Assembly: GCA_903837285.1 (NCBI GenBank)
Contig: CAILUD010000010.1
Span: 5,031-37,030 of the forward strand
DNA from: an uncultured Bacteroidota bacterium
GTDB taxonomy: Bacteria > Bacteroidota > Bacteroidia > Bacteroidales > GWA2-32-17
Length of the DNA stretch: 32,000 nucleotides
Reading direction: 5' to 3'
Position numbers and translations under genes: made by a program. Positions 13,040 to 14,056 of the stretch are shown here, piece by piece. The notes under the pieces are model-generated. The model was not told where the DNA came from. It saw nothing but the letters and a program-made list of their open reading frames with translations, and did no database searches. Every line of letters starts with the position of its first letter. Position 1 is the first letter of the stretch.

Positions 13040-13735
13040 TTAAAAAGTATATATTAAATAGAAGCCGGATAAAATCATAATAACTCCGGCTATAGTTGTA
13101 ATAATTTTACTGGCATTTTTCATTTTGTTTGAAAGTTTTCCAAATCCCATTTGCATTCCTGCAATTGCTACTGTAAAAGGCAAACTATAACCAATAGCAT
13201 AAGCAACCAAAATTAATACTCCCCAAAGCACACTTGCTTTCACAAACGATGCTCCTAAAACAATTGGCAAAATAGGATTGCAACACACATTGCAAACTAA
13301 TGATAATCCTCCAGTGAAAACACCTAAAATTAAGCCAGGAATAAAACCTTGCCTTTTGCTTTTAATATTTATTTGGGGTATTGTTATAGGTACTAAACCT
13401 AATGATAAAAGTCCAAAGAGAATTAGTAAAACAGCAACAGCTATTTTCCAATAAATGCCTACAGATTCAACTACTGTTGATCCAATATACCCCATCAGTG
13501 CGCCAATAATTGCAAGCGATATTACACTGCCAATTAAAAATGCTAGACTAAATAAAATCTGACTTTTCTTACTAGAATTTATAGAATAATTTGCTGAATA
13601 CCCTGTAATAGAACCAAGTATTGCATAATTACAACATGATGTAAAGGTGCTGATTATTCCCAATAAAAAAACTGCTGTAAGCATTGAGAATGAACCAGCA
13701 CCTGAACTTAAAGCAGAGTTAATCCACTCGCTCAT
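13040..13735 (-). CDS. CcdA/DsbD-superfamily 6-TM membrane protein with vicinal cysteine pairs in TM helices (thiol-disulfide electron transporter or soft-metal permease)
   Basis: 231 aa with about 6 TM helices. TM1 carries FTSCCNYAILGS. TM4 carries LVCNVCCNPILPIVLG, which compares with the CcdA PCxGPxL motif. Its stop codon directly abuts the hgcA start codon (13040/13039). Confidence 0.6.
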   Translation of the reverse strand: MSEWINSALSSGAGSFSMLTAVFLLGIISTFTSCCNYAILGSITGYSANYSINSSKKSQILFSLAFLIGSVISLAIIGALMGYIGSTVVESVGIYWKIAVAVLLILFGLLSLGLVPITIPQINIKSKRQGFIPGLILGVFTGGLSLVCNVCCNPILPIVLGASFVKASVLWGVLILVAYAIGYSLPFTVAIAGMQMGFGKLSNKMKNASKIITTIAGVIMILSGFYLIYTF

Positions 13736-13738
13736 TAT

Positions 13739-14056
13739 TTATTTTTTTGCGCAACAAGCTGGAACAGCAGCTGTATCCTGAACTGCTTTTCCTGCACAAC
13801 ATGAAGGAACTGCGGCTGTATCTGGTATGTTTTTACTTGGGCAACATGAAGCAATGCTGTCTTTTGGACAATTTGCATCATTTTTACAAGCATGCGGACA
13901 AAACATTTTATAAGATATTAATAAGCCTGCAGCTAATATAACAACGATAAAAATAATCGTTGTCCACATGCGTTTTTTTGAACTTTTTGGTTTGCAGCAA
14001 TCGTTATTTCCATCTGCACTACAACCACAATCTTTTTGACCTTTGTTTTCTTCCAT
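13739..14056 (-). CDS. Cysteine-rich single-pass membrane protein (17 Cys in 105 aa), function unknown
   Basis: The N-terminal segment carries CGC and CC, then KPKSSKKRMW, then one TM helix (TTIIFIVVILAAGLLISY). The C-terminal tail has CPHAC, one lone C and three CC pairs, including the tandem DTAAVP(S/A)CCA(G/K)K repeat. It lies 15 nt after arsR and 3 nt before the CcdA-like gene. Confidence 0.65.
   Translation of the reverse strand: MEENKGQKDCGCSADGNNDCCKPKSSKKRMWTTIIFIVVILAAGLLISYKMFCPHACKNDANCPKDSIASCCPSKNIPDTAAVPSCCAGKAVQDTAAVPACCAKK

Follow-up and report, generated by a model that had tools for sequence, protein, structure and literature searches.

A cysteine-rich partner and a CcdA-fold membrane protein encoded directly upstream of hgcA in Bacteroidota: a candidate thiol relay for HgcAB

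We analysed a stretch of 32,000 nt (hereafter the window) from an uncultured Bacteroidota bacterium with a genome of 31.6% G+C (contig CAILUD010000010.1, positions 5,031 to 37,030). Here two genes for cysteine-rich membrane proteins, called orf105 and orf231 below, lie between an arsR-family regulator gene and the corrinoid-dependent methylation genes hgcA and hgcB. The five genes are close-packed on the minus strand in the order arsR-orf105-orf231-hgcA-hgcB, with intergenic gaps of 15 nt (arsR/orf105), 3 nt (orf105/orf231) and 0 nt (orf231/hgcA), the TAA stop of orf231 directly abutting the hgcA ATG. This is the arrangement described in the original prediction, which a model had made from the letters of the window. 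The features are the following (TM, transmembrane; aa, amino acids).

14072..14443, minus strand: arsR-family regulator, 123 aa, first gene of the operon (NF033788, 64.8 bits against a cut-off of 55; PF01022)
13739..14056, minus strand: orf105, putative bitopic poly-cysteine partner, 105 aa, 13 cysteines
13994..14029, minus strand: N-terminal cysteine motif of orf105, CGCSADGNNDCC (residues 10-21), followed by KPKSSKKR; predicted to be cytoplasmic
13910..13969, minus strand: predicted single TM helix of orf105, residues 30-49 (hydrophobic stretch, positive-inside bias)
13742..13909, minus strand: cysteine-rich tail of orf105, residues 50-105, predicted to be extracytoplasmic; CPHAC, a lone C and three CC pairs, ending in CCAKK
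13040..13735, minus strand: orf231, 231 aa, predicted six-TM membrane protein of the CcdA/DsbD fold (PF02683, 37.8 bits)
13631..13636, minus strand: vicinal pair C34-C35 in TM1 of orf231; C35 is invariant and aligns with the TM1 catalytic cysteine of CcdA, C34 stands in place of the canonical proline
13280..13294, minus strand: cluster C148-x-x-C151-C152 in TM4 of orf231; C152 is invariant and aligns with the TM4 catalytic cysteine of CcdA, C151 replaces proline
12017..13039, minus strand: hgcA, 340 aa, no N-terminal cysteine extension (NF040863, 428 bits against a cut-off of 275)
12743-12766, minus strand: cap-helix of HgcA, NVWCAAGK
11714..12007, minus strand: hgcB ferredoxin, 97 aa, C-terminal CC (NF040864, 122.9 bits against a cut-off of 99)

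HgcA and HgcB both score above their NCBIfam equivalog cut-offs, and the cap-helix signature N(V/I)WCA(A/G)GK and the terminal CC of HgcB are present. The ArsR protein carries its cysteines in CTSC (residues 49-52), CYC (91-93) and a C-terminal CC, a layout that recalls the four-cysteine site reported for ArsR2, the hgcAB regulator of P. mercurii ND132. Only two of these residues are widely conserved among the ArsR proteins of loci that bear the pair, C52 (43/48) and C93 (48/48). Housekeeping genes flank the unit (a YchF GTPase, an M23 peptidase and proteins with a type-IX secretion sorting domain). Since no further ars (arsenic resistance) gene adjoins it in the window, we regard it as a minimal five-gene unit. 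The nearest relative is found in a Bacteroidetes metagenome-assembled genome (locus L001), where the orf231 homologue is 96% identical.

The 13 cysteines of orf105 are C10, 12, 20, 21, 53, 57, 63, 71, 72, 86, 87, 101 and 102. The original prediction counted 17, whereas the motifs that it listed also sum to 13; the remainder of its description, a CGC..CC segment with a lysine/arginine cluster (KPKSSKKR), a single TM helix and a cysteine-rich tail, agrees with what we find. Pfam and NCBIfam scans give orf105 no family name (only sub-threshold matches to DUF6480 and to a poxvirus family are returned), a sequence search recovers only seven close homologues, and Tandem Repeats Finder reports zero DNA repeats in the part that encodes the tail. 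A profile scan with alignment A2 over one genome per species (185,579 species) yields 66 loci with a relative of orf231, of which 63 are titled as Bacteroidota lineages and three are not. When the open reading frame (ORF) directly upstream of each relative is inspected, one partner architecture is seen in about 64 of the 66, which speaks against orf105 being a chance reading frame. The N-terminal motif (D)C-x-C...CC-x-PKKK is present in 58/65, and the Ser/Thr/Lys-rich tails vary from 30 to 152 residues and from 3 to 17 cysteines, with SSCCPKK as a typical end and a CC inside the last nine residues in 53/65. The partner in L001 retains all 13 cysteines of orf105 at merely 81% overall identity.

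The partner is predicted to have its N-terminus, with the CGC..CC motif, in the cytoplasm and its cysteine tail outside, as the original prediction also proposed. The N-terminus is placed in the cytoplasm because ArsC, a cytoplasmic enzyme, can be fused to it and because of the charge bias around the TM helix (on average 3.8 lysines plus arginines before and 1.8 after the helix). In these fusions, found in four species-level Bacteroidota genomes (L016:5257-5994, L032:5301-5996, L041:5259-5996 and L049:5283-5999), a complete thioredoxin-type ArsC with its P-loop CTGNSCRS is joined in frame to the partner.

orf231 matches Pfam DsbD_TM (PF02683) with 37.8 bits against a cut-off of 27.1, and a profile of its relatives matches only one structure in the PDB, that of CcdA (5VKV, E 7e-7). 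The same structure is the top Foldseek match (probability 1.00, TM-score 0.38) of an AlphaFold2 model with a mean confidence (pLDDT) of 68 and a predicted TM-score of 0.66. Membership of the CcdA/DsbD superfamily, as originally claimed, is thus borne out, and the two motifs FTSCCNY and VCNVCCNPILP are indeed present. Alignments A1, A2 and A4 all show C35 and C152 without exception. Among the close relatives C35, C151, C152, N36, N153, P154 and P157 come out as invariant, C151 being kept in at least 90% of them. The P-C-x-x-P feature of CcdA is absent: TM1 reads SCCNYAI, without proline, and TM4 reads CCNPILP. Loops 1, 3 and 5 of orf231-type proteins average 2.2 to 3.3 lysines plus arginines and the other loops 0 to 0.9, which points to an N-out/C-out topology with loops 1, 3 and 5 in the cytoplasm. 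The best NCBIfam match is ArsG (NF040495), but because it reaches only 24 bits against a cut-off of 200 we consider orf231 a subfamily separate from ArsG. By predicted fold and by its two cysteines at the catalytic positions, the protein belongs to the CcdA/DsbD superfamily; it is distinct from ArsG and unrelated to MerT, MerC and MerF. The subfamily is small (59 members at E <= 1e-30 and 807 at E <= 1e-10 among 1.84 billion cluster representatives searched), and neither Pfam nor NCBIfam holds a curated family for orf105 or orf231.

The linkage to hgcAB is recurrent. In 57 of the 66 loci hgcA follows directly downstream of the orf231 relative, nearly always together with hgcB. The membrane-protein gene and the hgcA ORF are separated by a median of 6 nt (at most 40 nt in 43/49 gaps), and in 62/63 loci the partner gene ends no more than 8 nt from where the membrane-protein gene starts. 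A synteny survey had been suggested along with the original prediction; its outcome is that the close subfamily resides mainly beside hgcAB rather than away from it. Most often the genes run arsR-arsC(-arsM)-partner-membrane protein-hgcA-hgcB-acr3. In the window and in L001, L003, L004, L006 and L028 the cassette is minimal, with arsR, the pair and hgcAB but none of the other ars genes; the flanks are distinct in L003, L004 and L006, while L001 has the window's downstream flank.

To view the linkage from the side of hgcA, we took the 80 metagenome loci that match best (44-57% identity to HgcA of the window); 59 of them have sufficient upstream sequence. On higher-GC metagenome contigs (L107, L092, L114, L119, L108, L145 and L147) the module is found near hgcAB in differing gene orders, for instance:

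L107: arsR, 249-aa partner, membrane protein, CDF transporter, hgcA, hgcB, arsC
L092, L114 and L147: partner, membrane protein, hgcA
L119: arsR, hgcA, hgcB, two partners, membrane protein
L108: hgcA, hgcB, membrane protein, secreted partner, then acr3 and arsC

On a rough neighbour-joining tree of HgcA, the pair must have been gained or lost at least 11 times to account for where it occurs. The association between pair and hgcAB is therefore no single inherited accident, yet it is far from universal. Now and then a gene is inserted between the DsbD-like gene and hgcA, for example one for a flavodoxin-ferredoxin fusion (L083:613-1410, judged by eye), a CDF protein (L107:2928-3914) or Acr3 (L016:6736-7776). 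A search of plasmid proteins returned only distant CcdA genes of 25-30% identity in an uninformative context.

A further observation concerns HgcA itself. According to a preprint (Haft 2022), an N-terminal extension carrying a CC or CU motif has been overlooked in many HgcA proteins. Where the pair is absent, we find an in-frame N-terminal cysteine extension in 29/66 HgcA proteins (CC/CCC in 17, C-x-C in 9, CU in 3), against 0 to 1 of 65 where the pair is present. The C-x-C type, such as MDSSNQKCGCGNS..., resembles QKDCGC..CC of orf105. Examples from loci L067-L146 include MSDCCCNSGCC (CC/CCC), QKCGCGNS (CGC) and CU, where an in-frame TGA is read; an extension is absent from 37 loci. In one locus (L077:1157-1306) a 49-aa protein directly upstream of hgcA consists of a CGCGSTDCC motif and a TM helix only, and both the DsbD-like membrane protein and the cysteine tail are missing. 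Such patterns suggest that the cytoplasmic motif of the partner may do for HgcA what the N-terminal extension does elsewhere. They also suggest that tail and membrane protein form one unit.

The module has wider relations. A profile search reveals a large subfamily of 227-aa proteins, 28-34% identical to orf231, in Omnitrophica, Elusimicrobia and others. Downstream of the gene for the 227-aa protein comes one for a secreted protein (about 147 to 252 aa) with a signal peptide, a domain and a C-terminal tail such as SSCGSGCGSGC; after it there is often a gene for a protein of about 108 aa with FPCGPxxSCCGP. The only hint about the fold of the secreted domain comes from sub-threshold thioredoxin-like Pfam matches, so that a thioredoxin-like fold of the periplasmic domains of the partners outside Bacteroidota is tentative. 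In P0126 a related membrane protein is fused to its secreted periplasmic partner, which implies that the two act together on the periplasmic side. Each member of the wider family thus seems to be paired with a protein that places a flexible cysteine-rich tail outside the membrane, while a membrane anchor and a cytoplasmic cysteine motif are predicted in the partners of the orf231-type subfamily only. True ArsF/ArsG pairs are separate paralogues that co-occur in the same operons (ArsG scores 280 bits there). Four long profile matches (P0241, P0258, P0265 and P0280) were excluded as canonical thioredoxin-CcdA fusions with PC motifs.

Two observations on this wider family stand on their own. The 227-aa DsbD-like protein, the secreted protein of about 147 aa (end SSCGSGCGSGC) and the FPCGPxxSCCGP protein of about 108 aa form an unnamed conserved triad in ars operons of several phyla. 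Also, in Elusimicrobia an ars-type operon arsR-arsP-DsbD-like-partner continues with a gene for an MtrA-like corrinoid protein with a pterin-binding domain (NF002128, 388 bits). The loci are:

L148:5001-6512, L153:4937-6416, L151:5001-6130 and L108:2856-4372: triad
L149:6571-7617 and L150:6571-7617: MtrA-like corrinoid protein, a second kind of corrinoid protein beside a DsbD-like module

The ars neighbours of the hgcA-linked loci comprise thioredoxin-type ArsC, ArsC-ArsM fusions, Acr3 (usually straight after hgcB), ArsP and ArsF/ArsG. The ArsC-ArsM fusions, of about 410 aa, are encoded directly upstream of the partner gene (L019:4448-5680, also L015, L020, L025, L030, L035 and L043; NF008823 arsenite methyltransferase, 344 bits), and therefore genes for methylation dependent on S-adenosylmethionine and on corrinoid stand in one operon. 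Upstream of arsR another module recurs, made up of a secreted protein of about 247 aa that ends in SGCCPGGAKTGGCK, followed by genes for an FtsX-like permease and an ABC ATPase (L013:1643-4299; also L012, L015, L016, L022, L025, L027, L047 and L009).

A few features of the window itself remain to be described. orf105, orf231 and hgcA share one reading frame (12017-14056), separated by TAA plus one codon and then by TAA, and in L029 the stop of the DsbD-like gene is a TGA in frame with hgcA. The common frame, including this TGA, is probably coincidental. Selenocysteine read-through from orf231 into hgcA was rejected, as the intervening stop is TAA. A sigma-70 and terminator scan, which is uninformative for Bacteroidota, returned one feature only, a perfect bidirectional hairpin (14540-14556) in the gap that separates arsR from the M23 peptidase gene upstream. 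This hairpin may shield the operon from its neighbour, although terminator-like sites are just as numerous as expected by chance. Further away lie a CDF cation-efflux gene (5247-6209, about 5.5 kb from hgcB), a separate protein with a type-IX secretion sorting domain (4077-4895) and, on the opposite side of the operon, an ORF of 1,861 aa (16576-22161).

Compared with known systems, the pair combines traits of several. With CcdA/DsbD-beta (PF02683; 5VKV), orf231 shares the six-TM core, the predicted N-out/C-out topology, one essential cysteine at aligned positions in each of TM1 and TM4, and an extracytoplasmic partner; the fusion in P0126 resembles that of DsbD to its gamma domain. Unlike in CcdA/DsbD, both catalytic sites of orf231 read CC, proline is replaced and TM1 lacks C-x-x-P. 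The partner has no CxxC thioredoxin motif, its cysteine clusters lie on both membrane sides according to the predicted topology, and the context is one of ArsR, hgcAB and ars genes, with no cytochrome c maturation genes among the annotated neighbours. ArsG and ArsF (NF040495/NF040494, of the ArsEFG organoarsenical detoxification system) likewise consist of a DsbD-superfamily protein and a small secreted protein in ArsR-type operons. The cysteine motifs are different, however (ICPCS and FCPNS in ArsG, SCCN and CCNP in orf231), and there is no match between orf105 and ArsF. As a DsbD_2 protein that is presumably an arsenical efflux transporter, judging from its NCBIfam name and a secondary citation, ArsG sets a precedent for metalloid transport by proteins of this superfamily.

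In mer systems, paired cysteines in a TM helix and cysteines on both membrane faces precede a hand-off to the cysteine pairs of a cytoplasmic enzyme, and the operon contains regulator, transporter and enzyme. The original prediction saw vicinal TM cysteines as the hallmark of MerT, MerC and MerF. Such pairs, which may serve Hg(II) transfer, do occur in TM1 and TM4 of orf231; MerC has CxxC and no vicinal pair. The membrane protein may work like MerT, MerC and MerF; even so, it has no sequence or fold relationship to the Mer proteins, and the enzyme downstream methylates rather than reduces. Neither orf105 nor orf231 has a Pfam or NCBIfam match to Mer families, and no mer genes (MerR, MerA) are present among the annotated neighbours. 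ArsD binds soft metalloid through vicinal cysteine pairs and hands it to a transporter. orf105 shares such pairs, and arsD genes adjoin the 227-aa subfamily; ArsD, however, is a soluble protein of a different fold (PF06953) that serves ArsA, and orf105 gave no ArsD match in the Pfam scan. The CC/CU extension of HgcA (Haft 2022 preprint) is similar in being a short cytoplasmic cysteine-rich motif beside the corrinoid domain, and in our sample it is mutually exclusive with the pair, L119 excepted. It differs in that the motif of orf105 resides on a separate, membrane-anchored protein with a cysteine tail outside and no selenocysteine.

The reading that we favour, tentatively and at somewhat below an even chance, is that orf105 and orf231 form a thiol-lined relay for soft metals or metalloids that directly serves HgcAB. 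Our best description of the module is that it would have a CcdA fold, would be drawn from the ArsR-controlled repertoire of ars islands and would have become dedicated to HgcAB in this Bacteroidota lineage. Hg(II) or As(III) would be passed by ligand exchange from the outer tail to four intramembrane thiols and on to the cytoplasmic CGC..CC. The four intramembrane cysteines, at the alternating-access centre of the CcdA fold, would form the middle of this thiol ladder, and the cytoplasmic motif would sit beside the corrinoid domain of HgcA and the C-terminal CC of HgcB. We favour an unmethylated cargo, as methylmercury is monodentate and hence a poorer fit to multi-thiol motifs than Hg(II) or As(III). 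This reading draws on the synteny with hgcA, the tight coupling of the pair, the minimal cassettes, the other gene orders near hgcAB, the cysteines at the active site of orf231, the predicted topologies, the complementarity with the HgcA extension, L077 and the ArsG precedent.

On the direction of transport the analogies are nearly balanced. Inward, mer-like delivery is slightly preferred, because the order arsR-partner-permease-hgcAB parallels merR-merT-merP-merA and because of the equivalence to the HgcA N-terminus. Export from the cytoplasm, in the style of ars systems, is nearly as likely; it is favoured by the ArsR control, by the efflux-gene neighbours and by the ArsC fusions, which are like the known Acr3-ArsC fusions. 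In its strongest form, the proposal makes the pair the inner-membrane route from the cell exterior to HgcAB, a mer-like thiol relay with the fold of CcdA. Corrinoid-dependent methylation of metal(loid)s would then have its first accessory system for transport, and the native cargo that HgcAB receives in these bacteria might be either As(III) or Hg(II), since the module comes from ars islands and the partner is fused to ArsC in some species. This form we regard as unlikely.

Several points weigh against the favoured relay. The binding of a metal, its transport and any contact with HgcAB are inferred steps, and the structural model of orf231 is of modest quality. The module is present in only 9/59 of the sampled hgcA loci, many of which read arsR-arsC-hgcA-hgcB-acr3 without it, so the pair is dispensable for hgcAB in general. 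The complementarity between pair and HgcA extension is confounded by shared ancestry, the two groups being phylogenetically separate; L119 carries both, and L077 is a single case. In the widest family alignment, moreover, C35 and C152 are the only invariant cysteines. The extra cysteines are frequent but not universal, and retained thiol-disulfide chemistry therefore fits equally well. It might be argued that orf231 is a CcdA-type conduit for reducing equivalents, which cycles C35 and C152 between thiol and disulfide, handles no metal and keeps the external tail reduced, either to sequester soft metals or to reduce a periplasmic substrate, with hgcAB gaining indirectly. CcdA is after all the sole solved relative, and exactly its two catalytic cysteines are invariant throughout the family. 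The partner in the wider family is secreted, with weak sub-threshold thioredoxin-like matches; in P0126 it is fused at the periplasmic C-terminus of the membrane protein, where DsbD has its gamma domain; and the paralogous ArsF/ArsG comprise a secreted protein named as a nitroreductase subunit and a DsbD_2 protein. Nevertheless, no partner has a CxxC thioredoxin motif, the cysteines lie in flexible tails, the canonical proline around the catalytic cysteine of TM1 has given way to cysteine, and cytochrome c maturation genes are absent from the annotated clusters of neighbouring genes. A conduit would also leave the cytoplasmic CGC..CC, the ArsC fusion and the likeness to the HgcA extensions unexplained. 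On balance we think it somewhat unlikely.

The same degree of doubt applies, in our judgement, to an explanation that dispenses with HgcAB: the pair would be a permease and chaperone of ars islands for As(III) or organoarsenicals, as ArsG, or as ArsP with ArsD, and hgcAB a 1.3-kb cassette that came by chance to lie between the pair and acr3 under the same ArsR. The original prediction had itself offered an ArsR-controlled metalloid module as its alternative, and this has gained support. Links between hgcAB and ars genes were already known, and the typical order arsR-arsC(-arsM)-partner-permease-hgcA-hgcB-acr3 is as expected from it. Genes for ArsC, ArsM, Acr3, ArsP or ArsG occur within 6 kb in 39/57 hgcA-linked loci. 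hgcA is missing from 8-9 of the 66 loci, 6-7 of which retain ars genes; in L025, L027, L048, L061 and L062 the pair stands among ars genes without hgcAB, and in L025, L027 and L061 acr3 comes directly after the membrane protein. The membrane proteins of the hgcA-less L022, L025, L027, L048 and L062 are 66-86% identical to hgcA-positive ones (86.5% between L025 and the hgcA-positive L020). As hgcA-less loci are thus nested among hgcA-positive relatives, hgcAB behaves like a cassette that comes and goes at the site between the pair and acr3, and the pair is able to persist without it. The 227-aa subfamily was found in ars operons without hgcAB in 7/7 places inspected (arsD, arsA, acr3, arsP, arsM, arsC), and the fusion of ArsC to the partner suggests a hand-off of As(III). 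Of the dedication to HgcAB that was originally proposed, the recurrent linkage stands, but an exclusive link does not. On the other side, the minimal cassettes keep pair and hgcAB while all other ars genes are gone, the module turns up near hgcAB in other lineages too, with the genes in other orders, Acr3 and at times ArsP and ArsG already provide arsenical efflux in the same loci, and both the complementarity with the HgcA N-terminus and the truncated partner in L077 point to HgcA. That the pair is a functionless hitch-hiker or decaying remnant kept through linkage is very improbable. The missing family name of orf105, its low-complexity tail and the fivefold variation in tail length might be read in this way, yet architecture, cysteine positions and tight coupling have persisted in over 60 species-level genomes, at membrane-protein identities that range from 37 to 96%, and the L001 partner has lost none of the 13 cysteines.

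Regarding earlier work, co-location of hgcAB with ars genes and control of hgcAB by ArsR have been published, Hg uptake is reported to be energy-dependent, and the links between hgcAB and arsenic are described as unexplained. In P. mercurii ND132 no methylated arsenic was detected, and loss of hgcAB caused no significant drop in arsenic resistance. Our literature search returned no paper that ties hgcA to DsbD, CcdA or cytochrome c biogenesis proteins, no conserved hgcAB accessory gene beyond arsR and the ars co-location, and no description of the pair.

The pair may bear on the questions of how Hg(II) reaches HgcAB, how the product exits and what HgcAB evolved for. It provides the first conserved and testable accessory candidates for substrate handling by HgcAB in major environmental carriers of hgcA, though arsenic may be the substrate instead of mercury. 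The loci differ in whether they have the pair, hgcAB and a cysteine extension on HgcA itself, and so offer natural comparison sets; the cysteines form a defined set for mutation. More broadly, a CcdA-fold family appears to have been reshaped (from Pro-Cys to Cys-Cys, with new kinds of partners) inside the metal(loid) resistance islands of many anaerobes. Bacteroidota are abundant carriers of hgcA in lakes and sediments. If the module alters the availability of Hg or As to HgcAB, it would be relevant to predicting methylmercury from these bacteria.

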